A stretch of DNA of 56,860 nucleotides, the filler included, from Porpidia crustulata (Eukaryota), in the NCBI GenBank assembly GCA_964255105.1. It is 3 parts of 3 records of this genome, joined end to end, with 100 filler letters (N's around TTAATTAATTAA, not from the genome) between each part and the next. Parts side by side here need not be neighbours in the genome. Positions count along the whole stretch, not along the records: positions 18,993 to 37,880 come from CAXUWE010000163.1; 2 more parts are not named here. One strand, 5' to 3'. Below the pieces are notes generated by a model. It was given only the letters and a program-made list of their open reading frames with translations. It was not told the origin of the DNA and did not search any database. The stretch's first letter is position 1. Every line of letters starts with the position of its first letter. The position numbers and the translations under genes are program-made. This document shows positions 22,303-50,024 of this stretch, piece by piece.

Positions 22303-24737
22303 ATGCCGACCGAAGCTGCGCCGATCATTGTAACTGCAAGCGGTAACTTGTATGTCAAGGATCAACTTCAATCCGTGGGATGTCCCTACTGAACGATACA
22401 AATACTGACCTTGTTCAAAACTCTAGCCAAGGTAACGATGGCTCTTGGTCAACTTTGAATATCAGTGTTGGGACGCCTCCCCAGTATGCGCAAGTGATCG
22501 CCTCAACCGAGACACCAGAGACATGGGTTGTCGGTGTGAACGGCTGCTTGTCCATGGATCCGTCAAATTGCACGGTAAACCGTGGTGGGACGTTCGACAA
22601 GATCAAATCCTCAAGTTGGATTACCAAGGCACCTTATCTCCTTGAGGCAGAGAGCAATCTGGGCTACACATCGAATAATGATACTGGCGGCTACGGATTT
22701 GACACGATCGGCATTGGAAAACCTGGAGCTGGGAATGTCTCCGTGGATGGCCAAGTAGTAGCAGAAGTCCTGACCAAAGACTTCTACGTTGGAACCTTAG
22801 GTCTTGCTTCTCGACCAATGATCTTTGGGTCCGACAACGACCCGCATCCCAGCTTGATAAGCTCGCTTCAGAATAGAAGTCTCATTCCAAGCCTTGCGTA
22901 TGGCTTCGCGGCTGGAGCATCGTATCGTAAGTGGCGCTCCTATTGATGTGATGTTCATAATTAAGAACATTTCATATAGGTAATGCGGACACCAGCTTGA
23001 CCCTCGGCGGTTATGATGCCTCCAGGTTCATACCCAACGATGTTAGCTTTTCATTTGGTCCACAATCCACCCGGCAGCTGGTCGTCGGCCTGAAGGCCAT
23101 CTCTTATAGCGACGCGAAGAAAACAGACTCACCACTTTTGCAGACGGGAATCCTAACGCTTCTGGACTCATTGACCCCTCAAATATGGCTCCCCTTGGAT
23201 GCATGCCAATTGTTTGAAAAAGCCTTTGGGATTGTATATGATCCAATCCCAAACCTTTACCTCATAAACCAAACAGTGCACGATCAACTCTTGCAGCAGA
23301 ATGCGAGTGTGACTTTCGAGTTATCGAACACTCTGAACGGAGGCCCTTCGGTCCAAATTATATTACCGTATGCGAGTTTCGATCTCGAAATCGGTCCGCC
23401 ATTCACAAAAAGCGTCTCAAAATACTTCCCCCTTCGTCGCGCGGCGGACGGAAATCAGTATACCCTAGGTCGAACTTTCTTACAAGAAGCGTCAGTTCCA
23501 CAAGTTCCTCTGGTGTCGCACGATAAAATTTAAGCTGATATTTACTAGTTACTTGATTGTAAATTATGAGACCTTAAACTTCTCAGTATCGCAATCGACG
23601 TACAGTCAAAGCACACCGCCACATATCGTGCCCATACCAGCAACTAACAGCACAGCCGAGAGCGCTCCCCCAACTACAAGCCCGGGGCAGCCACAAGTGT
23701 CAGTTTCAACCGGCCACGGCTCCCAATCTTTAGGGATCGGAGCCATAGCGGGTATTGTGGTTGCTCTAGTCGGGATCACATTGATTTGCGGGGCCGTTAT
23801 ATTCTATTGTAGGCCCTCACGACGTCGTCGTAGAAAATCTGTCGAGGCTCCGGCATATATCATCACACCCAAGGATGCATTCGAGGTGCAAGGATCTCAC
23901 TTTTCTAACACCACGGCTAAGGATAAAATCGTCGATATCATTCAAGAAGAAAAGGATAGTCCTATGACCCCTCCAGATGAGCGATCAGGATACGAATTGG
24001 ACGCGGGACGTGCACTACCTTCGGAGTTGGGGAGCCCGATACCTGAACTACCGTCGCCGGGCCATGAGCCGCCGACCTTTGAGCTGGCATCGCCAGAGAC
24101 TGTGCCACGAAGAATAGCGCCAGATCCAAGTCCGATAGCGCCATCAATTACAGCAATCCGATCATCATACAGAAACGAGTGGAATCAATCAGGAACACCG
24201 TCGCCAGAATCCGAGTTCACAAGTGCGCCCTCGCCAGATTCGGCAGCTGCATCGCCAAGTATCAAGAGAATTTCTAGGAGACCGACATACCCGAGACAGG
24301 ATTCGCTGGGTGCCGAACCTGTGTTGTCCTCGGCGGCGAGACCAGCGACGAGACCAGCGGCGAACCCTGTGCAACCACGAGGCGATTCGATGTACTTCGA
24401 AAGCGGACGGACACCAGATGCCATGCAATCGAGCCCGCTCCCTAATCGGACCGGCTCATCAAACTTTGGTCAATGGTCAGGAACATCAACCGGAAGATCT
24501 ATGCACGGAAGAGTCCAGTCTAAGGACTCGATTGATTCGTTCGATACAAGGTTAGAGCACGGTAGCCCGTCAGGGACCTATTCTGGGACCCCGCGAGTAC
24601 AAGCGTCACCATCCCCACTCCAAGAGTATCACAGTCACGAAGAGCTGCGATCGGCCATGTCGTCGCCGGAACTAGGTTCGGAGAAATCGGGCCTAATGTC
24701 GCCGCCACCATTACTCAAAAGGTTTGAAGACTCTTGA
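22303..24737 (+). CDS. Pepsin-fold (peptidase A1-like) protein with one TM helix and a long Ser/Pro-rich cytoplasmic tail; catalytic dyad degenerate
   Basis: GNDGSWSTLNISVGTPPQ, GTLGLA, LIPSLAYGFAAGASY, SLTLGGYDASRF, LLDSLTPQIWLP, YFPLRRA..QYTLGRTFLQEA/YLIVNYE; TM GAIAGIVVALVGITLICGAVIFY followed by RRRRRK; three introns. Confidence 0.85.
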
Positions 24738-26280
24738 GAGCAATCTGATCTGTTCAGGCCCTGATGGGAGTGATGCGCGGGTACAATCATCGATGTGTTA
24801 CTTCAGCTCTAGCTTCTTGTTATTAATACTCTTTATGATTTCTAATGATGGATGATGGGTCTAGGTAGGTGATCGGGTATAATCAGGTATGATACTACGG
24901 TGTAAGGTCGGGAACGCACGGGTCTAGAACAGGGCAATCATTCGACCACGGCTCTGGTACGGCGAACTTTATTCAATGGGTGGCACATGGCAAAAAGGGG
25001 ATCGGGTTTGTCGTGCCTGGCGTGGGTTTATGATTTGACTTCGCAACGATTTGTATATGGTGGAAGGCCCGGACACTGCCGCGTCTTGGCCTGCCACACT
25101 CCGATCTAGCACGATTTTGCCGATGTATTTACATAGGACTCGCCGAATCTTCGCAGGGCATCGCCACCTTTTCGAAAACTTTAGGTAATCGTATTTTGTC
25201 CCTTGCACCAAAAATGGAAATTTCCCCTGCAGAGCATTTGAAGTTAGCGTCCGACTACCTTCCGCTGCCCTAACGAGTTAGCATAGTATTAGCGTGGTGG
25301 GGAAATAGCCTTTGGTCTTCTTTGGGACGTCGAAAAATGTCGTGGAAAGTGAAAAGGCCTGGCAGCCTCGTGTTCGCAAATCCACCCTCGGCACTGGAAA
25401 CCTACGTGAAAAGTTCGACTGTGGGCCGTCTCCATGGGTGAAGTAGCAAAGACAAGTATGTGCTCGTGGCACAGGTGTCCATCGTCGAAACTGCTCTTGC
25501 TAAGGTACAATTGTCTCTTATTACCTCAAGAGCTATGGATCTGAAGAGGTCAAATGGCCATATGCTCATCTCACCTACAGCTTTGATGACGACAACAGTA
25601 CTGGATAGCACAGCCACGATAACTCCCATCAGCTTCGATTGTAGCCATGAGTGCTAGTTCAGCCTCCGAAGTCAAGGACACCCCCAAGTGGGATGGACCA
25701 ATGAGAGCCTTCAAGAATGACGCTACCTACTACGTTCCTCTTGGTCTGAAGTTTGTATGAAATAGACTGAGCCTCTGAGTCATTTTCGATACAGAATGAC
25801 TTTATTGCCAATTTCGCAGTCAAGATTCCACTCAGTAGTGTTGGCCTGAGATTTGAAGTCTTCTAGATTCGCAGAGCCGATGGTCGGTTCCTGGCACTAT
25901 ACTGAATACGGAAGCAATGTACTATGACCGAACCTTCTATGCGTCCATCTTACTCTTTCCTGGCCATCTAGAAGTCAGCACCTCTCTTTAACTGTCAATA
26001 GCCAAACGTGTATGCTCAACACGGCGTTGGGAGGCTAGTTCCTACTGGTGCATCATATCGGGATTTATGTACAAGATGTCTAGACTGTTAAGATGTGGAA
26101 AGCTTCATGATAGTAATGCCCTTGACTAGAGTTTGTGGTATCTATATAGTTGTCCATTTCCTCATCTCTAAATCCAACATCAAGTCCTTCGCTCCATCAT
26201 CAACACGCTCGTTTTCAGCAAGTGACGAATCCTTGCACTTCAGTCCTTTACTCATTCTATCAAGGAATTTCATTCAACAG

Positions 26281-27630
26281 ATGGCTTCTCTCTTTGTTGT
26301 TGCCGCCCTGGCTGGGTTGGCAGCTGCTTCTCCGGCTGCTCAAGCTTTTGACCTAGGCGTCATCGGAGCCGCACCCATTCCAACTGTGACCGCTGCTCCC
26401 CTTGCATCTCTCCTCGACACCATTTCTTACAGCCCAGCGGACGCCACAGTTCTGGGATCCTCAGTGGCCAATGCCGTAGGAACCGCTGCCGCCAAGGTTA
26501 AGCGTGACGACGGTGGATGCTGGGGCTACGGGGGATGGGGCCCAAAACCCTCGACCTCGAAATCCATTTCGTACTACCCTTCCCCCACGCCAACCAAGTC
26601 TCAATCGCAGACTTCTGGTACAGCCACGACCAGCTCTTCCACATCATGCCCCACCACTCCTGAAGCTGGTACATACTGTGGATTCATTAATCCTGAAGAC
26701 CCTTGCGCTCCTCAGCCAGATGGTTAGTCCATCTGAGACCCCGTCAATGAGCTCTACTGACCCAATCCAGGCTATGGCCCACAAGTCTCTCCAGATACCG
26801 TTGAAGCCTTTGAAGCCTACCCCCAATTCCACTACCTCGCCAAATCTGTGAGAACCCCCTACGGTTACGCGGAAACCTTCGCCGATCTCAACGCCTCCGT
26901 CTCTGCAAATTCATATCTCGGTCTGCACACCTTGTCGAGCTACAGTGCTCAAGACTGCTCCGCATGGTGTGATAACACCACCCTTTGCACGGCCTTCAAC
27001 CTCTACATCGAGCGCGACCCAAGCCTGAATCCCAGCACCAATTGCACCCAGCCCTCCTCGATCACAAACTTCAAGTGCACGCTCTGGGGCTCCGGCGTCG
27101 AGCCCGCTGCCGCTAACAACTTTGGTGGCTACCGCGGAGATTTCCACGTTGTCATCGCTGGCTCCAATGGCTACGAAAAGACCAACAATACCCTCCCCGC
27201 CGCCCCTCCAGGCTGTGGAGCGCCGACTCAGTGCCCCAAGGGCGCCATCAACGACCCTAAGCACTGTATGGGCACCAAGTTCTTCCCAGGGCCCTTTGAC
27301 GTCAACGTCTGCAGCGGCTACGCCTTGGGCCAGAATGACTACAACAAGAAGCACAGCAGTTACAAGGCGGGCAACAGCAAGTGCGAGTCCTTTAACGCAT
27401 ACATGGTCAAGGAGGACGGTGTCGCCAAGGGCACGTACTGCGCGCTGTACGACCAAGTTTATGACTCCAACAGCTGCAGCTACCAACCGGGTTGGATGCA
27501 GGGACACTACTACGGCGTCGAGAGTTCGTGCACTTACACCGTTGGTGAGGGCAAGGACGGGAGCTCCGAGGATAACAGCGGGGATTCCTCTTCGAAGAAA
27601 GGGAAATCGGGATCCGAGGGCGGTGACTAG
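26281..27630 (+). CDS. Secreted Cys-rich fungal protein, possibly PAN/Apple-like or carbohydrate-binding (intron 26723-26770)
   Basis: Signal peptide MASLFVVAALAGLAAA; dibasic KR site (KVKRDD); CSAWCDNTTLCTAFNLYIERDP...NFKCTLWG; second Cys-rich module C..FNAY....GTYCALY. Splicing joins ORFs 26095 and 26848 in frame. Confidence 0.8.
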
Positions 27631-28402
27631 ATGAAAGTAAACGGGATGGGAAAGGAAGCATGGGAAAGAAAGCATGGGAAAGGCGATTCTCGGCGATGTG
27701 GAAAAGCGTTGTTTTGGCGGCTTTGATGAGCATGATCGGTCTGGAGTTTTATCATAGTTTCGATCTAATCGTAATTACTGCAACGGATCCTGGAAGTTGT
27801 TCGTCTAACACACTCATTTCATCCCTTTTGCCACGGCGGTTCTCCACCTTTCAATGCCTCTAGTTGCAGTTTCGGATGATGTGGATCTCCTGATCTGTAC
27901 AATGGATCAATCCGCAAGGATATCTCGAACGGAGACCATCCACACCGCAATTCCTCAATTTAACCCGAGTGACTAATCCTTCCTAGAAGTCTCTAGACTC
28001 GTATCCTGTAATGGCGTACCTAGCCTAATTTGATGTATTATTATGGGAGACAAGAAGACAAGAAGACACCGCGATTGAATTTCCTTAGGTTTAACGGGCT
28101 TGCATAGATCCCTATCACCCTACCTAATCGGTAAGCTTTGCAGGCAGGCACGCAGGTACTGTGAGGCTATGTTATAATCAGCCGCTGAGTAGGCATCGAA
28201 GGATGGAAGTCTAGTATTTGAATTATCGAGCAGCGACAACACAACCCATCACGTTATAAAACTCCATCCAATAGCTCATCGCAGACAATTTCAAATTTCT
28301 AGTGAAACTTTCATGTATCCTGGACCGATCCAACTTATCACCATTGCGAACTGATAACCTACCTTACTCGCCGCACGCCAGTACATCAGTCTTAGTGGTG
28401 CG

Positions 28403-29860
28403 ATGGCCGTGAATATGATCACCCGGCTTCCGCCCGAGGTCATGATGATGATGCTCAAGCATATCCCGGACCTCAGGACGCTGCACAACATTGCGATGGC
28501 ATATCCTAAAACCATAGGGCTGGAGATCAGGCGCAGGTTGCCGCATCTGATTCCAGAGGTCCTGGCACGATCTATGCCTGGAGAGCTTCTACAGTGCCGT
28601 TCACGAGTTACATCAGCGTGGCACTCGCGAAAGCAGTGAGCTGGATTTCAATCAACTCGATGGCGATTTGTTTGGCTTAGAGCCTGATTGGTCACGTAGC
28701 AGACTAGAAACAATCAAGGATATGCTGGTGTTGCATGATACGGAGGAATTTTATGCTCAGGATTTTGTCGGTAAGAGGCGCCAACCTCCGAAAGAGTGTG
28801 AGGCGTTTGCAAAGACGGCTGGTCCTCCTGAAAAGATCGAACTTTATCGGATACACCGCGCCCTTTGGCGGTTCGAATTCTGTTCTAAATTGGGGCATAT
28901 GTTTGCGCAGATTCCATTGCTCCTGGGACAGCGGTCTCTGGACTGTTCGGTATACAGGCAGACCATATTCCTCCAAAGCCTGCGTTTATGGGAGATAGAA
29001 GAACTGAACTGTGTATATGATCATCTCCAAGCGCCAGTAGAACCCTCGCGAAAGACTCGAAGTTCAAGGGTCTAAGATGTTCTGCGATTGCAGCAAATAA
29101 GATCAGAAATTTCGGAACAGTTGTATAGATTTCCGAGAAATGGCCTACTCTCTATCCGTCAGTGTTTGACTTTAAAGGAAGGGAGAAAGTCTGGAAGCCT
29201 CCTTCGGGCAACTTCTGGGAGTCGGTTCCGGGACACGACGGACCACATTTTTTGTACTCTGCAGGTAGCCATATTCCTGGACTTGCGATGCAGGAACCGT
29301 TTAAATCCTCAAGAGAAGCAAAGTCTTATTCAGGAGAACCAGGGGCTGGCATACCCACTCCCGGGTGGGAGGTTCTAGCTCGAAAGACACCATTCTGTTC
29401 TTCTGATGATGCTGACAATACACGTCATGATCCCGTATCCGCACGCGTGCAATCTTTCAAGTTTATACGGCGCTGGGCCTTTTGTATCTGGGACGCAGAC
29501 TGCTTGGACCGATGGAATATATCTAGCAAATCGTACGGGAATGATCTTCAAATGCTCGAGCGAATGCCACTCTATCCAGAGGTGAGTCTAGCACGCGAGA
29601 CGATTGCACGAATAATTTGGTTTCTATACTTGAAAGAGATGCAGAATTGCTCGTACACACGGTGTGATCATGAACATACCGTAAATGGAAAATTCAATAC
29701 AAGATGGTCTACGATAGCAGACGGCAATTTCGTGTCAGAGCATGAACTACAGACCTTCGATTTTGATATTGCCAAAATCAAAGGCATACTCAACATAGAC
29801 CTAGACCCGCACCAGCATCGTTCGCTGTCGAATCGTCAATTCGAATTCCAAGCGCCCTGA
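28403..29860 (+). pseudogene. F-box-like fungal gene disrupted by two frameshifts and an in-frame stop
   Basis: LPPEVMMMMLKHIPDLRTLHNI (F-box-like) / ELYRIHRALWRFE..WEIEELNCVYDHL / TAA 29073-29075 / IRRWAFCIWDADCL, spread over changing frames with no introns of plausible size to repair them. Confidence 0.65.
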
Positions 29861-30469
29861 GTCTTGCTATCAACGTAGTTCGGCTGAATCAACTGCCGAA
29901 AGGCAAGCCTGATAATCGAAAACAGGATTCTCATTTCTTTAATGTACCAATGATCTTCCCCCAATACAAGCGATGTAGAGTATCTCTGCATATGAAGGCA
30001 GCAGCACCACTCAGTAGTGTTGCCTTCAGGCTTTGCCTGTACGTCCGTATCGCCTTATGATGGAGTTTAGCGATCTTTCGGAGGGAGACCTTGGCAGCAT
30101 TGACTTTGTATAGCAGGAAAAATTTCATTAGCATTTCATCTTTTCCATGTCGGAGTTGAGATACCATCGCTCAAGGTACAGTTTGTTATGCTATCCTCGA
30201 GACGCTTCGGCTCCGAATGATTCTCCCAAGAATGTTTTCATGTCTCTCAACCCTATAGTATGACGCGATTGGAAGATGCCTCGCGACTTAACCTGTACTC
30301 TGTCGTTGGACAATTATTGGACAGTATTTACCACGTTGGTCACCTGCATTCGTCACAATTGTCTCATTATACATTTGTTTGCAACTTTACCAGTAAGGAT
30401 TCAACATTTCTTACATTCTCTATACCCATAACCCCCCCTCAAAACCATAACAAATCTAAACACCCCCTC

Positions 30470-31012
30470 TCACCGAACAACCTCAACCCTAACACTCCGA
30501 AACTCACTCGTCCGCGCATCCGCAACCAGCGTCCCATTCAACTCCTCGCACGCCGTCCGCGCCCCCTCCTCGCTCCCAAACTCCACGATCCCCACGCCTT
30601 CATTCGCCAAAACCATGCTGCGCAGTATCGGCCCCTGCATCTCGAAAATCCCCTCGAATGCATGCTTGCCGATCCCTCGAGGCAGATTCGAAACGCAAAC
30701 GTACCGCGCGCCATCATCGTCTGTATGCGCCGGCCCGAGGCAGACGAGAAACATGTGCAGCGTGTGGCCGCCATACATGCAATAATTCATGGTCGCCACA
30801 ATCTGCCGCGCGAGCGTGTTGTTCTCGAACTCGATACTCACGTCGCCGGTGAATCCATCTGCGGCTGTGTTGTGTGGCATGGTTATGTTGTATATTTGGC
30901 CAAAGGCGCCGATGAGAATTTGGACGTCGAGGTCGGTGGTGCATTCGGGGAGGTTTCGGACGACGAGAAGGGTTCGGTGGGTGATGTTGGAGCACGGGCC
31001 GGAGCAAGCCAT
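30470..31012 (-). CDS. Small intronless protein with two RRM (RNA-recognition) domains
   Basis: LLVVRNLPECTTDLDVQILIGAFGQIYNI..GFTGDVSIEF; VCVSNLPRGIG..FEMQGPI..GVGIVEFGSEEGARTACEELNG. Confidence 0.75.
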   Translation of the reverse strand: MACSGPCSNITHRTLLVVRNLPECTTDLDVQILIGAFGQIYNITMPHNTAADGFTGDVSIEFENNTLARQIVATMNYCMYGGHTLHMFLVCLGPAHTDDDGARYVCVSNLPRGIGKHAFEGIFEMQGPILRSMVLANEGVGIVEFGSEEGARTACEELNGTLVADARTSEFRSVRVEVVR

Positions 31013-32383
31013 TTTTGAAGCGGGGATGTAGATGCCGTGGATTCTTGTTGTTGGCGAGTGAAGTCTTCCTTTTGTGCTGAGTCTGGTAGGTCTGGTAGGT
31101 CTGATCTGGATACTGTGCGAGATCTTTGATTTGAAGTAGGTGAGAATGTGGGTAAGGGATGGACGTTAGCAGTCTGCGCTGCTTATATGTGATTTGATTC
31201 ACAAAGGGCATTCATCTCACATCAAAGCACTATTCTTCCAACCTTTCAGAAAACCTCCATTCCATCAAAAGTTTGCCCAGGTCACAAAGTAATTGACGAC
31301 GATGCCCTTGTTCCGTCTCTTTGACGCCCAATCCACTAAGCAACCTTTGTGGCACATAAGTTTGTACACAACAAAGCATCGCACAATCCCCCTTTCGTAC
31401 ACAACAAAGCATCCACCAATCCCCCATGTCGACATAACATCTTCTTTGTCCTCGCAAAATCACCCCGGAACTGCGGGTCAGCTGTACCAGACCCCAGTCC
31501 ACAACCAGGGAACGAGAAGTACGTCTGGAATCAAGAACACGCATATCGCCTTGACTCTCAAGCAAGATCCGTCAGCTTTTTGGTATCCGTGGATGCTGGG
31601 AGTTGGTCATGCTATGGCTGCTGTGGAAGACGGATTTAAATGTTTTCTTAAGGATTTGGATAGACGAGCGTGGGTGTAGGTCTGGGCTATGTTGTTTGGA
31701 TTTTTTTTTCTTTGAGTTGGGATAATTGGGTCCGAGGATACGGATGGATGAGTGCGGGTGTGAGTATACTCCGTATAACTCCAAATATAAACACAACATA
31801 TACCAAGAGAAAAAAATAGAACTACAACCATCAAAACTATCGCTACGATAACCCAAAAAGATTAAAAAAATTCCCAAGATGATAAAAATCAGACTATCAT
31901 TTCAGCCAGATATACTATCCTCCTTATTCGGTTTCGAAACAGGCTGATAATTAAATAACTATTCTATGGATAACGATATCGGTGTCTCTTACATTATAAA
32001 GGAGATGCGCAGCGGCGTGGCGGACAAGTAGCGGGGATACTATAATATACTCGTTTAATATAAATAGCCAGCTGGTTATAGTTCTCGTATTGCATCTAAC
32101 TAATCGCTGCCCCTTCACTCCTGAGCGGAGCAGCGCCCTTTATATATACCTAATACCCCTATACCCAAGTGGCGCTAACGCGGCGCCAGCGCCAAGTCGC
32201 CCTTTCGACAACTGGGCCGAGGCCCTAGGCCCTAGCCTGGACTTGCCCCAGATTCCTTATACCCACACTTACTACGTATAGATAATCCATCCCAATGGCC
32301 ATATTGCTAATCCAAGAATTTTGGCCAGCTTTGTGACTCGCAAAGCCCGATGTGATCAGAAGAGAGGATGCCCAACCGCCGAT

Positions 32384-35300
32384 ATGCGGTGGCTTGGTAA
32401 CAAAACAAAAACAAAAGATGGCAGTGATATCGGCTCTTCTACGCGTGATGATACAGCTCCAAAACCCATTGTGAGTGGCCTTTGTTGGTAGCTCTCATCT
32501 GTTGATTAGTAGTCGAGCAATGGCTGAACACGGAATAGCCGGCCATAGAATCGAGTATTTGGGAGCGCGCTTTCACTCAATTGGGAGATGCCGAACCGGA
32601 TCTCATCCATAGGTTCAATTCGATTCTGGTCTCCGAAGCGAAGGGTCCCGACGAGCATGCCGGTCACGATTCGCCGACTCCTCCCACCCAGGCCAAGATG
32701 TCAAAGCTCATTGAGAGCAAATTGGCTGCCATGCAAGATCGTCAGTGGAAGGTATCACTAGGCAAGAAGTCAATTGAGATTCGGGCTCAGGTGAATCGCA
32801 TTTTACAGATCGTCAGTGTTGCGAAAGACCTTGGCTCCTCCTTGGCTTCTATGGATCCAATACACGCTGGCATCCCATGGGCTGGGGTTTGCGTGATTCT
32901 TCCAGTAGGCTCCTCATCTTGTGGGACTTTGATAGGCTCTAAAGTTGTCTTTAGCTGCTCTTGAATGATAGTCAGCAACGAAATGTCGCCATAAAAGGCC
33001 TTGAGGAAATTGCTAAGCTGATCCGGCGATTTTCCGAAGTGGAGAACCTCTACTTGCGAAGGGTTAACCACAGGCTTGTAGAAGACTTGAAAGATGAGCT
33101 TCTCATAATGTATCGCAAGGTCCTCGAGTTCGAGGCACGTGCTGCCTGTCAATTCGACCGCAATACGGCATCCCAAGCCATTCGCAACATTGTCAAAGCC
33201 GATGGATGGTCAGATCTTTTGAATGATATCAAGGAATCTGAGACTAGGTGCAATATACTGACTCAAATCATGGATGCTGAGAATCGACACAAATGGAACG
33301 ACTTGATAGAGACAATGATCTCAGAGCAGACTGCCAAAGTGAACGAGCTGCTCCTCATATCCAAAAGCCACAATGACGAGGAGCCCATGCGTGGCCTGTC
33401 TCGCGCGAATACTTTCAGAGGTGAAGAGCCATCCTCTGCTAACAGGAAGGAAGAGGCTGAATGCATCACCCTATTCCGTACTACCGACTACGAATTTGAC
33501 AAGAACAAAAACCCTTCTCGAGTCCCGGGTACCTGCGAGTGGGTACTAAATCATCCTGTATTCCGCAAGTGGGATCAAGAAGACAGCATCAGCTGGCTCT
33601 GGATTACGGCCAACCCAGGTTGCGGCAAATCTGTCCTCGCCCGATTCCTGACTGAAGACTTCCACAAGAACAAAGAAGGAACGTACATTTGTTACTTCTT
33701 CTTCAAAGACGATTCCGAGACGAACAGAAGCGCTAATCATGCCCTCTGCGCCATTCTCCACCAGCTAATGTGCTATGATGCAAGGATGGTTAGGCATGCA
33801 CTAAGCGCTTACGCTTCCAATGGTAAACAGCTGCCACATCTCATAGAGTCGCTTTGGAAAGTCTTCATCGCCACCATTGAAGCCCTCGACAGGCCTCTTC
33901 TGTGTGTATTCGACGCTTTGGACGAGTGTGAGGAGTCCTCAAGGCTGGATCTGCTGGCAAAGCTGGCACCTCTCTTCGGCAAAGGCAGTCATCCTAACAA
34001 GTTGAAGATTGTCATGACAAGTCGCCCCAACACGCCAACAGGTGATGCAATTTGGCGTCATGGCGTTGATCCAATGTCTATCCAATTGACAGGAGAACGA
34101 GAGCTCGAATCACAGGCAATCTCGAGCGAGATTGACTTGTATGTGACTGAAAAGATCCGAGGATTCAAAGATCTGAGAAGACATCGACAAATACATGACG
34201 ATGCACACGAGACACTAAAGCAGAAGATCTCGAGCATCGAAAATCGAACATACTTATGGGTCGCTTTGATATTCCCAGAGCTCGAGAAGAATGCAGGACT
34301 GTCAAAGACAAGACTTTCAAGCATGATTGATCAGATTCCGACTACGGTACAAGAAGCTTACGAAAAGATTCTCAGCCGAAGTCTGGACCGCCAGCGGGCC
34401 CGGAATTTACTACACTTAGTCGTTGCAGCGTTGAGGCCTTTGACGTTGATTGAGATGAACGTAGCACTAGCAATCGAAAGATGGTCAGATCAAGAAAGTG
34501 AACTTGATGTCGACCCTGAAGAGACGTTCGAGCTGACCATTCGAGAACTCTGTGGTCTATTTGTCACTGTCAAAAAAGGCCAAATATATCTCATCCATCA
34601 GACTGCTCGAGAGTTTCTTATACGAGATAAAGAGCACGCTCGGAAGGATGCCCTCGAGTCTACTGCCTGGAATTGGCGACACTCATTGCTGCCGATAGAA
34701 TCACATCGTCTGGCTGCCCATACATGCATGCTTTATCTCTTGCTATACAGCATTCGCAATGACCAGAGGGCCACACACAAAGCCAGTGAGGGTGTCAGTT
34801 CAAATGAGATAGCAGCAGAGAAGCCATGGCGGGCGCTGTTCGACTATGCAACAACATACTGGAGCGCGCATTCAATATCTACGAACTTTACGAGCAAGAA
34901 TCTCAATGAACCCTTCGATACAACCACAAGTACCGCAGGGAATGAGTTTACATGGCTAGAAATGTACGGAATTGGTCCTCGGTGGCTTCCTAGTGCGGCA
35001 TACGCCTCGTCAGCTCTCAGCATGGCCTCGTATGCCGGTCTATATCCAGTTGTACGCGAGTTGTTGCTTACTCAAAGCGCCGCCGATGATGGAATCAGAC
35101 CCTTGAAATACGCTATTTGCAATCATCACACTGGCACAATTGAAATCTTGCTCGACAATATTGCAGACAAGGAAGAGAATGAGGTTCTACTGAATGCAGC
35201 CGTTCACATCGCGTGTCATGTGAACGAGGAGCGAGCAGTTCAGAGGTTGTTAGACTTTAATGTGGTAAAGCCGGCTCACCCAGACTCTTTAGGTAGGACA

Positions 35301-36840
35301 GCTTTGATATGGGCACTCAGAGGCGAAAGCACAGAAAGTTTCATGCACCTATCAAACTATTTCATGTCGAAAGGATTACCATTATGGTCAGGCACAACCC
35401 TAAGCGCCTGTCTCCAAGTCGCCGCGAGCAACAATCGGGTCGCGGAAATACAGGAATTGCTTCATCAAACAGAGACTTTAAGCAGTGATGAAAGGCTGGC
35501 TGCATTACAGCAGGCAATTACTGAAGATCACGAAAGCGCTGTGATCATCCTCGTTGTGACCCCGGACGATCGCCTCAGATGTCCGCAGAAAGATATAGAA
35601 ATTGCGATTCATATGGCTTTGGAATACAACAAAGCCAACTCCGCAGAGTTTTTACTACAAGCCCTTACAAACTTTGAGGCTCGAAACAGTGATGGCGAGA
35701 CACCTCTTTTAATTGCCACTCGGACCGAGAACGTCATTCTTGCACATGCGCTCATACAATACGGAGCCGATGTCAACGCTGTCGCTTCGAAAGGATGGAA
35801 TAGATGTCGAGAAGGTGTTGGACAGACACCCTTGTACTGCGCAACGTCTCACAAGGATGTTGCAATCTTTTCGCTGTTATTGCAAAAAGAAGCCAAGACA
35901 GACGTGCGGTGCCATGGTGGCGATACGGCACTTCATCAAGCCGTAGCCTTCTCGAGTATGAATAAGATACAACTATTACTGGATGCAGGAGCGGATCCTA
36001 CTATTGAGAATCAATACGGTCTGACAGCGGACCAAGCTGCCTCGAGAGCTTCAGAATACATGAAAAAGGAAGACCATAGTGCAATTGTTGCAATGTTGAC
36101 CGAGGCGGCTTGTTTGCGCAGTAGTGAGAGGCCCGTGAAATATCCAGGCCAAAGCTCAAGCACAAGGAAACTAGGTTCTTGTCCACCAAAGCCCGAATTG
36201 TTTCATCCTTTGCTTTCCCAAATGAAGGATAGCCTAGATGTCGAGACGTTCAGTCAAATATTAGAGATGGATGATGATGACGAACCCTATGATTATCACG
36301 AATTCTCCAGATCGATCGTCTCTGGGTACTTCACACAGAACAAAGAGAATATCTTCAGTAGATGTGAGATTGCCATGTAAGTTACTCTGTCAAAACAAGC
36401 CCTGAGTCTTCGGGGGAAGCCAAGCTAATAGACAGTCCAGCATATGCGGCGACTTCCAGACACTCTTCATTTACGTTGGCGATAGTCTCAAAGGCAGTGC
36501 TCAAACCCTCGGTCTGAACAAGACTGCCGATTTGTGTGAGGAGGTGATGGATCTCACCCAAAATAGAGAGTTATGGGTTGGATGCAAAGACGATGGAGAC
36601 GAGTCGGATGATGTGGAGTGTCTTGTGCGCGTGAAACAACTCTACGAGGATATCAAAACGGAGAGCGAGAAAATGGAGAGATTCTTCAAAGACTTCTATT
36701 ATGAGATTCAAGACCCCAAATATGATTTACAACCCCTCGAATCGGAACACGAGGGGCCACCCGTCAATGAACAAGAATGCGATGGTGTGCAAGACTTGCC
36801 AGTACTCGAGAGCACGACATCAAAGGACAGTGTGGACTGA
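32384..36840 (+). CDS. Fungal NLR-like protein: NACHT_N (Goodbye-like) - NACHT - ankyrin repeats - C-terminal Ypd1-like pseudo-HPt domain; introns 32471-32538, 32905-32954, 36377-36440
   Basis: IWERAFTQL...DPIHAGIPWAGVCVILP (NACHT_N type); RVPGTCEWVL, Walker A WLWITANPGCGKS, Walker B VFDALDEC; ankyrins (GRTALIWA, GETPLLIA, GQTPLYCA, GDTALHQA); then TFSQILEMDDDDE..EFSRSIV...GDSLKGSAQTLGL. All splice junctions keep frame. Confidence 0.9.
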
Positions 36841-37296
36841 TCATCAAGGGCTAATCGGACACCAAGCGTCCACGCTGATGGCACAGGCAATTCGCAGTGA
36901 GCTTCTGCTCCATGAGACATCAGACAATTGAGACTATTGACCACCTTACCGAGTCTGCTGCGCGAACAGCGCTCCTTGAGCTGTCGCAAGAGTACAAAAT
37001 CGCCCATTGACTTGAGAGACATTTAAAGAGTGTCGCTGATCTCAATGGTTCGAATCGTTATTCCGTACTTCGCTCTCAATTCCTGTGGTCCTAGACCAAC
37101 CCGGAGTTCTGGGTGTGGTGGATTCAATTTACCATGGTCTCGTCATCAACGAGGCATTAGCATAGTCCCCCTGGAGCGCACAGGTCGAGGAGTGAAGCAT
37201 TTCGCTGAAGATTCTCCGGTTGCAGTTGTTCAAGCGAACACGCGGATGAAAGCGCTCAAGAAGCGGCTTGCGACGTCGAAGACTGGGAGGAAGCAT

Positions 37297-37323
37297 TCAG
37301 AATGCATTCGGAATGCATTCTGA
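37297..37323. promoter_or_regulatory. 27-bp inverted repeat (perfect 13-bp arms) containing three CATTCY (TEA/ATTS-type) motifs
   Basis: TCAGAATGCATTC-G-GAATGCATTCTGA; function not demonstrated. Confidence 0.3.
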
Positions 37324-37816
37324 GCGGCAGGACAGGTGCTCCGTAACCCGGAGTAAGACGAAAGGAGGCTCGGAGATGTCTCTGAATATCAGTAAGGCTA
37401 AAGCATGTTATTTGTTATTCTTGCGAGGTGGCTCGACTGAGTGAATTCAACAGTGGTTATTTAATCCCCGTTATTTAGCCTGCCGAGGCCCTTTGCCAGG
37501 GCGCGCCCTTGTCCAGTTTTCAAAAATCGTTGTCATCCCGGTCGTCGTGTCAATCTACGTCGAACCAATCTTCATCAAAGTAGTCGTGAAGTGGAGGGAC
37601 ATGAATCTACTTATCCAAAGCCCCTATTCTGGTCTTCGATCCACGGAGCCATCGTTTTATCTGAGTCGTGAAGCTGATACTCTGATGTTGAAACCACTTT
37701 GGTTACTCGGCGCACTAAGACCAAATAGATATACGGCCGTAAGGGCCCTATAGGTAGCGCAATATCTCTACTCTCCCTACCTACCGCCAAAACCCATAAA
37801 CAGTAAAAACATACAT

Positions 37817-37880
37817 ATCTCCATCATCTCCATCATCTCCATCATCTCCATCATCTCCATCATCTCCATCATCTCCATCA
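37817..37880 (+). repeat. 9-bp tandem repeat (ATCTCCATC)x7 running into the contig end
   Basis: Directly visible; probably the cause of the assembly break. Confidence 0.95.
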
Positions 37881-37980
37881 NNNNNNNNNNNNNNNNNNNN
37901 NNNNNNNNNNNNNNNNNNNNNNNNTTAATTAATTAANNNNNNNNNNNNNNNNNNNNNNNNNNNNNNNNNNNNNNNNNNNN
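37881..37980. other. Artificial contig spacer (N-run with TTAATTAATTAA at 37925-37936)
   Basis: Same 100-bp linker as 18893-18992. Confidence 0.98.
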
Positions 37981-40416
37981 CGGTGCTCCAGGCTGATCAG
38001 CGGGCCGAAGCTGGTGGCGGGGTCGGTGGGGTCGGGGACTTCAGTTGTGGAGGAAAAGTCTGTGACCGGAGGCACTGGCTCGTTCTTGGGGACGAGGCGC
38101 TTGCCGTCTTGTTTCTTAAGAAAGGCGGAGCGGGCGGCGGAGGCTTCGGCGTCGGAGACGGCTACGGAGTATGTTGGTTTGTCCGATGACCCGAGGGGAG
38201 CGTCGGCGCCGCCTGGGGGGTTGATGGGGACTTTGCGGATGGCAAGAACGAGGGCACACATAAACTTTGAGCGGCGGGCGGCGCGAATGGTTTCGTTGGC
38301 CCAATTAGACTTTGAGAATGGAGTTAGGGCAGAAACGATTGGCAGAGGAGAGGAACTGACCTTATGTCTGATTTCTACCCGGAGTTCCAGTTTATTCATC
38401 TCTGCAATGCCTGTAATCTCGAGATCGACATCAGGTTGGAAGTCTCGCGAGTTTTCCTTATCGAGAACAAAGGCTTGCATCTCACTCTTAAGGAGTTGAA
38501 TATCTTCGAGAGAGGTGTCAAAGGCAATGTACATAAAGAGTTGCTCCCTCATGGCCTTTGACCTAGAAACATTCTGTATCCAGACCGTGTTGAGCACGAT
38601 ATTCGGGACTTGAGTCGTCTTGTGGTCTCTGACTCGTTTAAAGACAGTGAACAGTAGAGAGATGTGCTCAACGATCAACTGCTCATCTCCTATATCAACT
38701 CGATCAAGGACGTCAAATGGGTGCTTGACGAAAAGAAAGATACAGGAGCCGAGTACTTCTTGTGCAGTGGTAGCGAAAACGAAGGATAGTGACAATAGAG
38801 CGGTACCCGTGGTCGCGAGAGTCGTGGTAAAGTTCTTGTTAAGGAAGGCCACTACCTCATTGTGAGCAAACGGACAAGATTCTATGCAATGTAATACTTA
38901 CCGAAGACAAAAATTGACATGATAAAAACGACAGTGCACAACATCCCATCCAGGACGTTGATGGCCTGATCAACGTCATGCAAGCTATTGGTGATAGAGT
39001 GTCGCTCGCGGCCAAATTCACATATGGTCACGATCATTTCGTCGAGACTAATATCTCCGTTGCCATCTCGGTCCAGAGATGAGAAGCATTCTTCCGCTTC
39101 CGCATGACGATCGCTGCCAAGGACTTCCGTGATATCTTCTCTGTACAACGCATCCTTGGCCTCCACCACAAAGCTCATCCATAATCGCTTCGCCAAAGCT
39201 TCTGATGATTTGTTTTTCTCCAAAGCCTCGACGACGATCGAGTGCGCCGAGCCAGGTTTGAAGACTTGCTTTCCGGTCAGCTCAGAGGCAATGTTCCCAA
39301 AAGCAGAAGTAATCTTGTCACCAAACCGACCCACATCTTGCAGGATTCGCAAAGGCGTGGCAGAACCTGACTGGCGGTTACCGATGCCTGGCGTGATGAC
39401 TGGAAGATTGAGGGAGTCATTAATTAGATAGTCCTCCTCGAGGAACTCGGGGCAGTAAGCGGGGAACAGTGCTCGAGAGGCGTCATACAGCAAACTCAGC
39501 AGATATACGTTGTGTTTGGAATCCTTGATTTTTGCATCGAACTGCTTCCGGTGATAGCCAATACTAATGAATTGGATTATCAATTTCTCAAGAAGAAAAA
39601 TGAGTGTCGCTATTAGAAAGGCTGCTAGGATCGACTGCACAACGTTCTCCCAATTCGTGACTCCAGCATTTTTCGGATCTTTCTTGGCTGCGGCCCTTTG
39701 GTCAGGATTCCGTGTCATAACCTGCACTCATCAGTAAGGCTCGAGATCCCTACGGAGAAGAAGGAACTGACAGGAATAAAAGTAGCCAAGGATGCCAATG
39801 CCCAACCGCTAAGCGACAGAGGAACCTCCAGTGCCTGAAGCACCATGGCATACTTCCGAGTACCCGAACTGACAATACCGCACAGGAATTGGAATATATG
39901 GGGTAAGAATTTGGCGAACAGCTTGGACACCCACAGACTGAGCCATACAATCTCAGCCCAAGCGAATATCCATACAATCCGGACCCCGCCAGCGTTGGCT
40001 CCTGGAGCGGCAGTGGCTCCGATGATGATGGGGATCGCGAATAGCAGGGCCACAGGAAGGACATAGACTGTGTATCGAATGACAATGGAAAAGTTCAATA
40101 TCTTGTTATAAATCTTTCCCATCTTGGTCACGACCTCCTCTTCCCCATCGGCCCCTCTCTTATTGCCTTTGTCCTTGGCAACTTTCCGTCGGCCAGCGAC
40201 ATGTTGTGGGAAGTAGCCGTCTTTTTCGTTGTGCTGTTGGTTGGATTGAGAGCCATAAGCCGATTGCGAATTATCCATCTTGCGGGCGCCAGTCTTGGTG
40301 GTGACTTGGGTTAGAGGAATGTCAATGGTAGCATCGTTCGGATTCACCATGTTCTGCGTGCTGGTGTTGGGAAGTTGCTGGAAACCCTCTCTCGAAAACC
40401 GATTTTGTTGAGGCAT
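37981..40416 (-). CDS. MscS-like mechanosensitive channel with EF-hand (fungal Msy1/Msy2 type); 3' end truncated by contig edge
   Basis: N-terminal TM helices; EF-hand LDRDGNGDISLDE; SCIFLFVKHPFDVLDRVDI, VEHISLLFTVF, QVPNIVLNTVWIQNVSRSKAM, RAARRSKFMCALV; several introns. Confidence 0.92.
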
Positions 40417-45042: not shown

Positions 45043-47737
45043 TCACTTCCGATCGGGAGCATCAGCCCCGGATAAGATCATTCGTCGTTCATCTTCCCCA
45101 AGCATCAACGCCCGATCCAAGAAAATCGCGTCGAACCACTTCCAATCCGAATAAAGCTGCCGTTTCGTCATTAGTACAAACCGAGCCGCTCTATTCGCAT
45201 CTTCAATATGTTGACGTTGCTTATCCATTCTCTTATCAAAATCCTGCAACGTCATTACTCCGCGCTTCTGCCACTTTTGAATCTCATGTATATGCTGAGA
45301 CTTCAGTGTTGTCCGCTCTAGCTGCTGTGCTGTCAATAGCATTTCATGAACGGCGGCTTTCTTGGCGTCTGCATCTTGCACTTCCGGCGGAACAGATTTA
45401 AGAAGATAATTATCCTCGTCCTTACGATGTCTTGCAATAGTCCCGACCAATTCCTTTGCATGCTTCCGTTGTAGCTCCCGCACCTTGCTGTCTGTGCTGG
45501 TAATTACCTTAGCCCTCTCCAAGGCTACGTGGGTCTCTTCCGAGGCCATGCCGCCCGATATTAAGGGTGCCTCCAGTAGCGCCATATCTTCGACCTCTGC
45601 GTTATGACGCCTATCTATAGCATCGCTTTGTTCTTTACGAACTCGGTCCAATATCAATCGTAGGTTCGCAAAGAAGCGCTGGATACCATCTAGCCTTGCA
45701 TACTCCTTTTCAGACAATCGGCGCGACTCCTCGGCGAGACGTGCACGTTCAGCCTCTTGTTCTGCGACTAATTCACGCTCCGCTGCCTCAACCGCTGCAA
45801 TCGCTGCTCTGATTTGGTCTTCTTCGCCTCGCGCCTGCGCTTCCATCCTTTCACGCCGTTCAGCGATCTCATCCTGCCTTCGGGTTTGATCTTGCTCTGT
45901 ACATGCACACGTTCTCCATCTTGCACCACAGGTGTAGCTAAATAGAATTAGCAAGTCTTCCATTGATAGAAGCATTAACTTACCAAAATTCGGCTTTGCA
46001 CTTGCAAGTAATGTGTCTACAGCCTGTGTTGAGCTCCACCATGGCCCTGCAATTGTAGCATCTTTGCCATCCCGCACGCTCGGCCTCTTCTAATGTTGCA
46101 TCAAGACCATAATCGTGGGAACACTCTTCGTGTCCCGTGTGTTGAGGACCGCGGCAAAAGCCACAGGTGTGGAAACTGCAATAGCTACATTTCAAGATCC
46201 CACCCGACGTTTGAGACAAGCGCGTATTGATCCACCGAGCACAATCCGGTCGTGCGCAATAGTAGCGACTTCCGATCGAAACCGCGTACTCAAAGCTTTT
46301 CTGGTCAAAGTCCGCCATTTGCTTGGAGCTCAAATGCAATCGCAAAGTAGATCTAGGAATTTCTTGTAGGCAGCATTGTGGCGGGAACGTATCTTCGTTA
46401 GCAATCGCAGTGTTAATCAGCTGTGAGAAGCATGTTAGGCAGTACTTGTGGCAACACGGCAGATTCACAGCCTTTTTTTGAGGAACGTCATCAAAGCAGC
46501 TTGTACATTCGCTGTGTCTTGGTTCATCGTGTGAAGGTCCTGGGGAGATTGAGCGCTTCGCTCTCCGGCCAGGGAGAAGCCAAAGGAATCCATCTCGTCT
46601 CGAACGTTTGTCCTTGCCTGTGAGCGGAGAGTGCGGAGTAGCGGTGCCCGAGCTTGGGTTCGAATACAAACTCTCCTGGGAACTCATCGCACCTGATTGT
46701 CCGATTACCTTAGGCGGCGGCTGAAGGAACACACTGCTAGCATCGCTCGCGGTTGGACTAACTAAAGAATCCTCACTAGACAGCGAAGATTTACCGCGTC
46801 GATGCGATACCATAGCCGAACTCTCCGCCACCACTGGTCCGTTAGCTGAATCGCTTGAGCTCGAGGATTGAGTTATAGTGGTTCTGACTATGATTGCTTG
46901 AGTATGTAATCTTGAGGCCTTCATAGCTCGATGTTCGTCGAGTGATTCTTGGATAATATTTCTGATTTCCTCAGGTGCATCATCAAAAACGATCTCAAGC
47001 TCTTGAGGAATGTCATATTTTTGCCACGGAGTATCTTCAAACCCTTCAGTATCTATCCTTGTAACTGATCTGGGAAGAGTCTCAGGGATGAATAGTCTGC
47101 TTATTATCTTCCTTTGGCTTTGCTGTAGTTGTGGTGGGCTTTCGAGGATAGAGACTGGCGGACTCTGGGGGGTAACTTTTGTGGTGGTGCATGAAATGAT
47201 ATTCTTTGCACCTGTAGCTGGCGAGTTCGGGGGCCCTCGGATTCTGCGAGCCCTGGGACGTCGCGGGCGACGGACCGATGAAGCCTGGGAGGATGTTCGA
47301 GATGGGGTTCTTGGTGGGTCTGGCGGCAATGTTTTTGATGACCGTTGTGACGGTGGACATGGAGGCAGGGATTTTGAGGAACGTCGAGACGATGAGTAAA
47401 GTGGGTGTTGTAAGGGCTTGGTGATTCCAACCGGACGAGCCGGAGACGGTCGACCTCGAGAAGTAGAAGTCTTTCGGAGTCCGCGTGGAGAAGCGTTGAC
47501 GGGATTGAAGGGTGTACGGGTGATTGTCTTGGTGCGACTTAGTTTATCCTTGTTGTTAGATGGGCGATCCATCTGAACTTCTGTTCGACACCCAACGGCC
47601 ACCTGCCGAGCTCTGACAGGAGCAAAGGTCGTAAAGTGAGCTTCTTTGATTGATACCACGCTCGGATCCATGTCTAAGCTCTTCAATGAGCCGCAGTAGC
47701 TGATTCTAAGAGGATCGACCCCATAGGAGGACTGCAT
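45043..47737 (-). CDS. RBR (RING-IBR-RING) E3 ubiquitin ligase with disordered N-terminus and C-terminal coiled coil (intron 45938-45983; start uncertain)
   Basis: CTSCFDD..LPCCHKYCLTC..FPPQCC; YYCARPDCARWI..CSYC..TCGFC..H..C; WQRCYNCRAMVELNTGCRHITCKCKAEFC/YTCGARWRTC. Confidence 0.9.
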
Positions 47738-50024
47738 GCTAGGTATTGAGATTCTTCTAGGCCTTCCTCGGTCCAATCTGTGCGACTTACGGTCAAAGAT
47801 TGATCAAGTACATCATTTTATTATAATGAGAAAAGAATTCTAGAAGCATGAGTATGAAAGTGAGACAATGGAACAGTGAATGAAGATCCAAGCACACGAC
47901 TCAAGGAATGTCTAGGCGTGCTAGAGAGATTGAAGATTAGCAACAGAAGGAAATTAAACGGAGAATTAATAGAAACAAACAAGATGGTCCTAGCGTTAGA
48001 CCTGCGATCCGTCGAACTCGAAGCCATCAAATTGCCTTCAGCAAGGACCAACTGCTGAGCCGCATCGTAGTCTGCCACCAATGGAACGTTGGTCTCTCCA
48101 GGCCATGATCCGGGGGGGTACAGACGACACGGAACTCATGCAAGATGCCTGGGGCGGATTTCTTTCCGTACACACCCCAAATCCTGACCATGTGCGAGTG
48201 CACACACGGGGCAACGGTCGCTTGCAAACGCAGGTTGTGAGAGAAGATGTGTGATCGGGTGGCTGAGGGAAGGGTTCAACCGTGCAATAAGCATTGGCGC
48301 GAATGCTTGTTTCGCCTGCCGATCCTGCGGGAGTGCCTCTCTTGCCGTGCACTTACTTTAGTGCCGTGGTCAAGTCTCAAGACTGGAAGAATCTTGGCCC
48401 CCTCGGATTACGGCGATGCATGGCAGTAAAATTCGATCTCGATCATTTCATATCTCTGGAGGCCCAGGGAGTTAGCTTCCAGGACTTCCTTCAATTGCAG
48501 CGTACTGGAGAGCAGAGCAGCGTGTGAGATTAGCGAGTACCATCCTACGATAAGCACAGCCTGAACAAATCGTGACACGTCGACAATGTTGTGATGTTGG
48601 TGGTGAAAACCAGCACGGACGCAAGCACTTCAAGGTATAAAATCGCCGACGCGAACTCGAAGACACATCGGTCGTTACACTTATGCACTAGATAATCCTA
48701 GTATAGATAGCGAAATTGCAGTACCACGAAGCTGAGACACCGGGGGCTTCTCATCTCAGTATCAAGAATTTCATCCGATATACCAGTCTGCCAGTCAACC
48801 AGATGACTAGCCGAGCCATAGCTCACAGACAGAGTTTCTCGAAGTGTATCTCATACCTTGACTGCTGCAACTATGACTACTACATACGCGAATACCAAAG
48901 AAATGATACACAACAGCCGATACAAACGCCACAAAGAGCATGAAACAATGGTCTGACTCGCTCTATCTCCTCTGTCGGCCACCACGCAAGCCAATCAGTC
49001 TATCGGCCACTGCCAACACACCGCTGTCAGCCCAAAATTGGCCGCATATTCGTCCCCACGCCGATTGGACAACGAACAGAGACCTACCATCTAGAGTTAT
49101 AGACTAGATTTTGTAAGCAAAGAGTTCGGAATCGACTCGTATCTTGCAAGATACCCACCACTTGGGCTGCCGGAATAGATTCAGCATGCATGTGAATGCC
49201 ATGAATTCTTCGGGTAGGAATACAGAAGCCTTCAATCCGGGCCCCTTCCATCCCAACGTGGTTGGCAACATATCTCTAACCCATAATCTGGTTTTTGGAC
49301 AACTTCTTACTACCGCTTTTTTGCACTTCAATTCTAGTACTCCAACGTAGGATCAAGGGCTTCGTCGGGCCGTCCCATGTCTCACAAGCCCAAGAGCCTC
49401 AGACTTACAGCCAGAACGTGCTCAAGCTGCCATCGATACATCAGGACACAACTCAGGGGTTTGTTTCGAGATTCCAAGGCTTCCGTACTTCCAGCCTTGG
49501 AGCTTCTAGAAGCCTGATGAGAAGCCACCTGAGAAGGCATGGTGATATTGACAGTTTCGCCTTCCCCACGCCATCGCTTGTAAACTAACAACATCCAGAA
49601 ATCGAGGTAGCCATAGATAAAAAGCCTTCTTCATGACTTCATTGTGAGTTTCAGCGACCAGTCATCAATGCGAGTCCGTAAATAAGGAGCACACCATGAC
49701 TCATGACGAATCAGAGGATATAAAAGAATAGAAAAGAATAGAATGCCCAGTCCACAAGTCCGATTGACTTGAGCTGAAAGAGGGGTCCTCGTGCACGTGA
49801 CCTTGCCCCTCATCTGAGACCTGTGGCATTCGAGCTTGAGTATTGCGTGCTCACTCTGGCGTTGATCAACCACGATCCTGGCCCTATCAAACTTGATTGT
49901 GAGCATAGAGGATGTCGGCTCTGGAGAGAGAAAACCAGAAGCTTCCCCTGTGCCATTTCTCTCGCATTCATATCTGATATTTTGTGCGGGAAGGCTATCT
50001 ACGACTCCACAAATCCCTTGAAAA

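Follow-up and report, generated by a model that had tools for sequence, protein, structure and literature searches.

What can a histidine phosphotransfer (HPt) domain still do once the histidine that accepts the phosphate has gone? The question is raised by a NOD-like receptor (NLR) gene found in a 56,860-nucleotide stretch of DNA, referred to here as the window, which consists of three joined parts of the Porpidia crustulata assembly GCA_964255105.1. The gene lies on the plus strand of the part taken from CAXUWE010000163.1 (positions 18,993 to 37,880), and the sequence is eukaryotic and fungal in style. Fused to this NLR is an HPt-derived domain that lacks the acceptor His, carries an acidic residue fixed at its site and has nevertheless been retained.

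On the plus strand, codons 36478..36516 (GGC GAT AGT CTC AAA GGC AGT GCT CAA ACC CTC GGT CTG) give the motif G-D-S-L-K-G-S-A-Q-T-L-G-L, which belongs to helix C and aligns to GHFLKGSSATLG of canonical HPts. The GAT codon at 36481..36483, encoding Asp1306, stands where fungal HPt/Ypd1 proteins have their phospho-accepting His, and both a phmmer search against PDB and the family profile place it on H105 of the solved Chaetomium thermophilum HPt (Ct_HPt). The sequence-only reading that drew attention to this locus had claimed these codons and the replacement of the acceptor His by Asp; the codons were as claimed when sequence and translation were re-read, and the replacement was borne out by phmmer, the family profile and a multiple alignment. 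The window thus has Asp where helix C of an HPt domain carries its phospho-accepting His, and the translation of the spliced gene model contains no His residue anywhere in the HPt part of exon 4. Moreover, the helix D Gln that adjoins the acceptor (Q127 of Ct_HPt) is Met in the window; in Ypd1, Q86 is reported to stabilise a sulfate bound at the His (PMC11224324).

The base call was checked in assembled contigs of four public runs (X1 to X4, of which X2, X3 and X4 each span 35700-36900 in one contig), and it was upheld as far as these contigs could be compared. The X1 contig is identical to the window, X1 being possibly the source assembly itself. The X2 contig comes from another study and is 95-99% alike; among its known differences from the window, which extend to 36724 and include every G and T change, with one A>C and one C>T lying outside this set, there is none at 36481-36483. 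Its residues flanking the site have changed (V to L and S to T) while G-D has not. For X3 and X4 only the differences that they have in common with X2 were visible, 40 others, possibly including 36481-36483, being out of view. The X2, X3 and X4 contigs have no frame-breaking indel in 35700-36900.

The stretch that contains the motif is a genuine HPt homologue and no chance motif. Taken alone, the exon 4 product (86 residues from 36442) scores 24.7 bits with the Pfam Hpt family PF01627 (E 2.8e-5), a borderline result against a cut-off of 24.6. The family profile searched against PDB finds 8rqg_B, an engineered H105E variant of Ct_HPt, at E 3.8e-5 and 8pbw_B at E 9.2e-5, the phmmer alignments set the Asp against the His of Ct_HPt and against the Glu of its H105E variant, and the nearest sequence clusters are ascomycete Hpt proteins. 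Structural comparison leans the same way. An AlphaFold2 model of the exon 4 part only, that is, of a partial domain, has a predicted local distance difference test (pLDDT) score of 70.5, with helices at exon 4 residues 5-22, 26-39 and 54-89 and a tail that falls below 50 from residue 98. When this partial model was compared by VIA-align, the best 12 rows were all HPt chains (71-82 residues, root-mean-square deviation, rmsd, 1.4-3.3 Å), at Z 7.0-7.6, values below 8 not being decisive for helical bundles. Foldseek gave no match in PDB at E<=1e-3 for the same partial model, its top seven rows being Ct_HPt or Ypd1 chains.

The gene that carries this domain is modelled as four exons encoding 1424 residues with one terminal stop, in which NACHT_N, NACHT and ankyrin repeats are followed by the C-terminal HPt; exons 1 and 2 were placed by alignment with relatives, and exon junctions were predicted from sequence. 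Exon 1 (32384..32470, +) begins with the ATG and has 29 codons, ending in phase 0; an ATG exon and a GT donor are found at the same place in two related loci (L003 and L004, described below). Exon 2 (32539..32904, +) encodes the first part of NACHT_N (PF17100; 30.9 bits on 32581-32901) and has 61-67% identity to its counterparts in L001, L003 and L004 by tblastn, its flanking introns being GTGAGT..AG and GTAGGC..AG. Exon 3 (32955..36376, +) holds the end of NACHT_N, the NACHT/NPHP3_N NTPase (about 33528-34037, +; Pfam NPHP3_N 3.3e-40, NACHT 7.3e-11) with the P-loop P-G-C-G-K-S in its translation, a winged helix (GPIID_WHD 4.1e-9), ankyrin repeats (about 35058-36029, +; Ank_2 2.1e-30), a linker and HPt helices A and B. 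Its frame is open over 1141 codons, from 32955 to 36380, and ends inside GTAAGT. The N-terminal half of the HPt domain (36240..36376, +), whose helices A and B form the main receiver-docking surface, aligns with two canonical Ypd1-like proteins (P0010 and P0011). It is separated from the rest by a 64-nucleotide phase 2 intron (36377..36440, +; GTAAGT...CTAAT...CAG) that splits the domain between helices B and C, and removing 36377-36440 restores both the frame and the HPt alignment. Exon 4 (36441..36840, +) encodes helices C, D and G and a variable tail, down to the stop TGA at 36838-36840. With a central NACHT that has its P-loop, an N-terminal NACHT_N over two exons and C-terminal ankyrin repeats, the product is a fungal NLR of the NACHT type, and in the window as in L001, L003 and L004 an extra domain homologous to a cellular protein, the HPt, stands after the ankyrin repeats of an otherwise complete NLR. 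That the HPt is truly integrated, as the sequence-only reading held, is supported by the open frame that helices A and B share with the ankyrin repeats.

An exhaustive HMMER search with exon 4 returned 12 proteins at E<=1e-3. Seven of them make up a distinct family (P0003-P0007, P0012 and P0014), four are canonical Ypd1-like proteins with G-H-[FY]-L-K-G-S-S (P0008-P0011), and the remaining one (P0013, 1672 residues) was rejected as a family member, being a bacterial-type hybrid kinase with several Hpt domains. The family entries are short, intron-blind open reading frame (ORF) calls, in which exon 3 and exon 4 were called as separate ORFs. A metagenome scan found four loci with the same gene (L001-L004). 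In L001, L003 and L004 the gene is whole, with a long NACHT_N/NACHT/ankyrin frame that reaches helices A and B, then an intron, then exon 4; the HPt intron measures 64-68 nucleotides and lies at the same place in phase 2, and the spliced models are open with one terminal stop. L002 is a 5'-truncated copy with the same exon 4, and P0012 is the exon-4 ORF of L004. Six further exon-3 ORFs, of 1120-1133 residues, are 73-92% identical to the window over their last 95 residues. The gene, its architecture and the intron within the domain are kept in at least six lineages. Protein-database searches with the exon 4 product or the family alignment gave no longer, fused proteins, which says little because eukaryotic gene calls there appear to be intron-blind. 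Orthology by gene order is likewise unsupported, since seven ORF products flanking the gene in the window had no match in L001-L004 at E<=1e-5, the loci covering at most 10 kb on each side.

In two of the canonical proteins (P0008 and P0009), HPt similarity ends a few residues upstream of helix C, and the preceding part resembles translated intron. This suggests that, in these fungi, canonical YPD1 genes may be interrupted by an intron near the point at which the NLR-borne HPt is split; such an intron would accord with the capture of a genomic copy of YPD1 together with its intron.

Across the family, the site of the His is acidic in all eight sequences that cover it, with Asp in seven (the window, L001, L002, L003, P0004, P0005 and P0014), Glu in one (L004, the same gene as P0012) and His in none; in L004 the Gly before the site has also changed to Asp. 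The eight come from six lineages whose mutual identity in exon 4 is 36-67%, and the codon at the site reads GAT, GAC or GAA in independent assemblies. The four canonical Ypd1-like matches all have His. Neighbouring positions of helix C vary within the family (S/F/W/N, K/R/L/Q, G/S/V and S/N/Y/T). Because the site is acidic in every sequence while its neighbours vary, and because X2 keeps G-D, the loss of the His is taken to be old and fixed, with a replacement that stayed acidic. As an HPt homologue without the acceptor His, the domain is a pseudo-HPt, and the expectation of the sequence-only reading that the loss would prove fixed was confirmed within the family. Its further claim that K, G, S and L-G-L are retained holds for the sublineage of the window and fails beyond it: K108, G109 and S110 are confined to the window and P0003, the relatives having R-S-N, K-S-N, K-S-Y, Q-G-T or L-V-N instead of K-G-S.

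What, then, would the domain do without its histidine? Its probable role is to bind partners in two-component signalling, with no onward transfer of phosphate. The account that we favour, with slightly better than even confidence, is that this NLR-borne, Ypd1-derived pseudo-HPt has lost phosphotransfer and works as a binding module, most likely for high-osmolarity glycerol (HOG)-type receiver domains. The domain would no longer transfer phosphate and would act by binding, and its partners would be receiver domains of a HOG-type phosphorelay, those of hybrid histidine kinases, Ssk1 or Skn7. Receiver domains are proposed as the most likely partners because the docking face formed by helices A and B is conserved, whereas the residues around the acceptor site have been replaced. 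When the 15 receiver-contact residues of Ct_HPt (complex 8PDC; PMC11224324, Supplementary Tables 1 and 3) were mapped by alignment, 11 were found within the range of canonical fungal HPts in the window, including positions 54, 57, 61, 69, 73, 76 and 80. The outliers are Y77, a conservative change with Tyr for Phe, and D105, S106 and M127, all three around the acceptor site. In L001 and L003, 10 of the 15 contacts are in the canonical range. Within helices A and B, T54, Q57 and F69 are common to all 10 sequences covering that part, and M61 to eight of them, the other two having Leu.

In this model the NLR would use the domain either to sense receivers, as a bait, or to block them, as an output comparable to that of AHP6 in plants. 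The fixed carboxylate may mimic phospho-His or dock into the metal (Mg)-bearing pocket of an unphosphorylated receiver. Phosphomimicry may apply, the single observation that points to it being the persistence of an acidic side chain at a site whose neighbours vary. A laboratory precedent for part of this model is the H105E variant of Ct_HPt, in which phosphotransfer is abolished, neither receiver domains nor a hybrid kinase fragment phosphorylating it, while the fold is kept, with an rmsd of 0.7 Å (PMC11224324).

A more specific version, which is attractive but doubtful, can be considered. The NLR would guard the HOG relay, its domain, locked by the carboxylate in a pseudo-phosphorylated or metal-docking state, sitting on hybrid kinase or Ssk1 receivers and reporting tampering, or it would, when activated, block Ypd1-to-Ssk1 transfer. 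In the guard version, the source of tampering could be pyrrolnitrin-type compounds or the effectors of antagonists, bacterial or fungal. In the blocking version, the clustered domains of the activated NLR would do the blocking, and the lethal HOG hyperactivation that phenylpyrrole fungicides exploit would serve as the receptor's own cell-death output. The Ypd1 relay is the pathway by which fludioxonil and pyrrolnitrin kill fungi (PMC10512271, PMC6433957), which makes the guard version appealing without being evidence for it. If the guard or the blocking version were true, fungi would gain their first pseudo-HPt, and fungal NLRs their first integrated domain with a nameable pathway.

Several results weigh against a receiver-binding role. 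Superposing the H105E structure on the complex produced a small number of clashes with the receiver (PMC11224324), and the acidic residue is therefore not clearly favourable to binding. The canonical range is kept at just 4 of 15 contacts in L004 and 1 of 7 in P0014, and Pfam Hpt matches none of the exon-4 products of five relatives at E<=0.01. The strongest conservation in the family falls on new motifs rather than on the canonical receiver contacts of helices C and D, a pattern that fits a new partner at least as well. G-D-F at the start of exon 4 (36442-36453) is invariant in the family. The W-V-G-C insertion between helices D and G (36574..36585, +) is absent from canonical Ypd1-like proteins, with W and G invariant in nine of nine family sequences and V and C each found in eight. 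The motif after the last HPt helix, Y-Y-E-I-Q-D-P-K-Y-D in the window (36697..36726, +) and Y-Y-E-I-Q-D-P-x-[FY]-D in its family form, has no counterpart in P0010 and P0011, and its Y87, I89, Q90, P92 and D95 are invariant. To the same side belong the omega values of the domain and the outcome of the search for RNA runs, which are treated below with the explanations on which they bear.

These motifs also speak for the strongest alternative, which we think rather unlikely. Here the HPt bundle would have left two-component signalling altogether and taken a new role within the NLR, the acidic residue being part of a new surface; autoinhibition against the ankyrin repeats or NACHT, oligomer contacts or binding of a partner other than a receiver could all be such roles. 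In favour of a co-opted scaffold, the invariant columns are mostly novelties of the family (G-D-F, W-V-G-C, D-G and Y-Y-E-I-Q-D-P-x-[FY]-D), and in the AlphaFold2 model G-D-F and W-V-G-C form short adjoining strands (exon 4 residues 2-4 and 44-46), a pair foreign to canonical HPts. The loss of helix C and D contacts in several lineages and the failure of Pfam with the five relatives fit it as well. It is opposed by the retention in helices A and B of T54, Q57 and F69 throughout and of M61 in most sequences, by K-G-S and T113, still present in the sublineage of the window, and by the position of the acidic residue exactly at the site of the His, which is easier to explain if the old interface is in use.

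Could the domain simply be decaying? An NLR gene might have acquired a YPD1 copy at its 3' end, a copy that then lost the His through chance and has drifted ever since, the open frame reflecting a short time or weak constraint on any C-terminal extension. The sequence-only reading had proposed purifying selection, and the answer depended on the distance at which it was sought. Between L003 and L004 (gene-wide synonymous divergence, dS, 0.97), the ratio of non-synonymous to synonymous divergence (omega) is 0.17 (0.15-0.19) for the NLR body and 0.37 (0.29-0.46) for the HPt, in agreement with that proposal, the value for the HPt being overlapped by the 0.43 (0.32-0.56) of linker plus tail. In the same comparison the non-synonymous divergence (dN) of the HPt is 0.36, more than twice the 0.16 of the NLR body and near the 0.41 of linker plus tail, as expected of a relic. 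Between the window and its close relative X2, the HPt has 13 non-synonymous and three synonymous codon changes, which gives an omega of 0.67 that is indistinguishable from weak constraint and matched by the 0.66 of the adjoining ankyrin/linker.

Over long distances, in contrast, neutral decay is not what is seen. The identity of the window to L003 and L004 is 0.41 and 0.36 in the HPt, 0.41 and 0.40 in the ankyrin domain and 0.19 and 0.17 in linker plus tail, so that conservation of the HPt is about level with that of the ankyrin domain and double that of its flanks. Despite the loss of the His, the frame is open in every copy seen (all four loci and all six exon-3 ORFs), as the sequence-only reading had stressed, with dS about 1 or saturated. 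In exon 4, 12 columns are invariant in eight sequences, the acidic residue persists in eight of eight while its neighbours vary, and the position and phase of the intron are kept. A decaying relic is accordingly an improbable explanation. In our reading, constraint on the HPt appears real but moderate, uneven between lineages and focused on particular positions, amounting neither to neutral decay nor to strong conservation.

Far less credit can be given to an artefact, whether of the gene model, the HPt part then being a small gene or pseudogene of its own that lies downstream of the NLR, or of the assembly, with GAT standing in error for CAT. Database calls do list exons 3 and 4 as separate ORFs, and no RNA run was found among the public runs containing 35700-36900, splicing and expression thus being predictions made from sequence. 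Against this, the frame of the ankyrin repeats continues without a stop into helices A and B in the window, the three full loci and the six exon-3 ORFs, and neither L003 nor L004 has a conserved Met upstream of helix A. The split ORF calls enter intron sequence, as expected of intron-blind calling, and an acidic codon is found in independent assemblies. Finally, that the domain remains catalytic and transfers phosphate via another residue is scarcely credible: no support for it was found beyond the existence in the window of a His upstream of helix B (D-Y-H-E-F), which is also present in canonical P0011, where it is not the acceptor, while the HPt part of exon 4 lacks His, the Gln of helix D that adjoins the acceptor has gone too, and H105E kills phosphotransfer in Ct_HPt (PMC11224324).

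The NLR-borne pseudo-HPt combines two known kinds of protein, pseudo-HPts and NLRs with an integrated domain, and can be compared with each. With fungal HPts (Ypd1 of S. cerevisiae and Ct_HPt, PDB 8PBW/8PDC) it belongs to the same domain family by Pfam, profile and structural ranking; the helix A and B motifs are common to both, and the window also has their helix C K-G-S and L-G-L. Fungal HPts are free-standing proteins of about 130-180 residues, whereas here the HPt is the C-terminal domain of a 1424-residue NLR, with Asp or Glu in place of His, Ser in place of Phe106 (in the window) and Met or Leu in place of the helix D Gln, and with the W-V-G-C insertion and the Y-Y-E-I-Q-D-P-x-x-D extension added. 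The H105E variant of Ct_HPt (PDB 8RQG), the best PDB match of the family profile, also has an acidic acceptor site and is called a phosphomimetic mutant by its authors (PMC11224324); it carries a laboratory Glu, whereas the substitution described here is natural, mostly to Asp, and accompanied by other changes around the site.

Plant pseudo-HPts, such as Arabidopsis AHP6 and rice PHP1-3, have the HPt fold without the acceptor His, do not perform phosphotransfer and are negative regulators of phosphorelays; they are free-standing, with Asn at the site in dicots and gymnosperms and Gln in monocots (PMC11497342). The likeness to them is the missing acceptor His, while the domain described here is acidic at the site and fused to an NLR. 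Its origin appears to be independent of theirs, the nearest canonical relatives being ascomycete Ypd1-like proteins. Literature on pseudo-HPts sought together with fungi concerned plants only, as judged by titles. A binding role of the NLR-borne domain would extend pseudo-HPt regulators from plants to fungi, with an acidic residue instead of the Asn or Gln of plants.

To our knowledge, how fungal NLRs sense anything is largely unknown. Integrated decoys have so far been put forward for them just as candidates, on the strength of domain surveys; one such case is a CHK2-like Pkinase at the C-terminal end of NACHT NLRs in Sordariales (PMC12258605). As in those cases, a complete tripartite NLR is followed here by a C-terminal domain copied from a cellular signalling protein; the difference is that the extra domain is an HPt, a putative decoy with no known effector or ligand. 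The word 'Hpt' is absent from the main text and supplementary files 1-13 of PMC12258605 (files 14-17 and s005 not included), a weak negative, as the control word 'Pkinase' is absent from file 13 too and the tables may not list Pfam names. No paper joining NACHT with an HPt domain was found in the literature searched. Domain-based NLR surveys would miss the NLR-HPt architecture because Pfam Hpt detects none of the five relatives. The interest of this small conserved family lies in an extra domain that derives from the single-copy hub of fungal two-component signalling, and whose catalytic residue was replaced in one consistent chemical direction.

Plant sensor NLRs are typically paired head-to-head with a helper NLR. 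In the window, no NACHT or NB-ARC match was obtained in 16 other ORFs of at least 170 residues, only long ORFs being covered by this comparison, and the domain scan of the other long ORFs found no second NLR and no two-component gene. The ORFs that it identified, whose domains are ordinary eukaryotic ones, encode, on the plus strand, a CAND1-like TPR protein (9639-12812), a PP2C phosphatase (14505-16088), an NDH2-type oxidoreductase (17859-18944) and a SIMPL/DUF541 protein (52842-53636) and, on the minus strand, an RGS protein (4728-5891), an MscS-like channel (37929-38897), an IBR protein (RBR-type E3; 45980-47803) and a SLAC1/TDT transporter (50679-51413).

Some minor observations concern the variable end of the NLR gene and its relatives. 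No part of the gene evolves faster than the tail beyond the P-K-Y-D motif; X2, X3 and X4 all have the same in-frame insertion of 12 nucleotides after 36790, and the corresponding place in P0003 holds four additional residues. The HPt of L004 (10001-10288) is the most degenerate of the family, yet its family-specific motifs are kept and its frame is open. The public runs containing part of 35700-36900 include some labelled as lichen metagenome and air metagenome.

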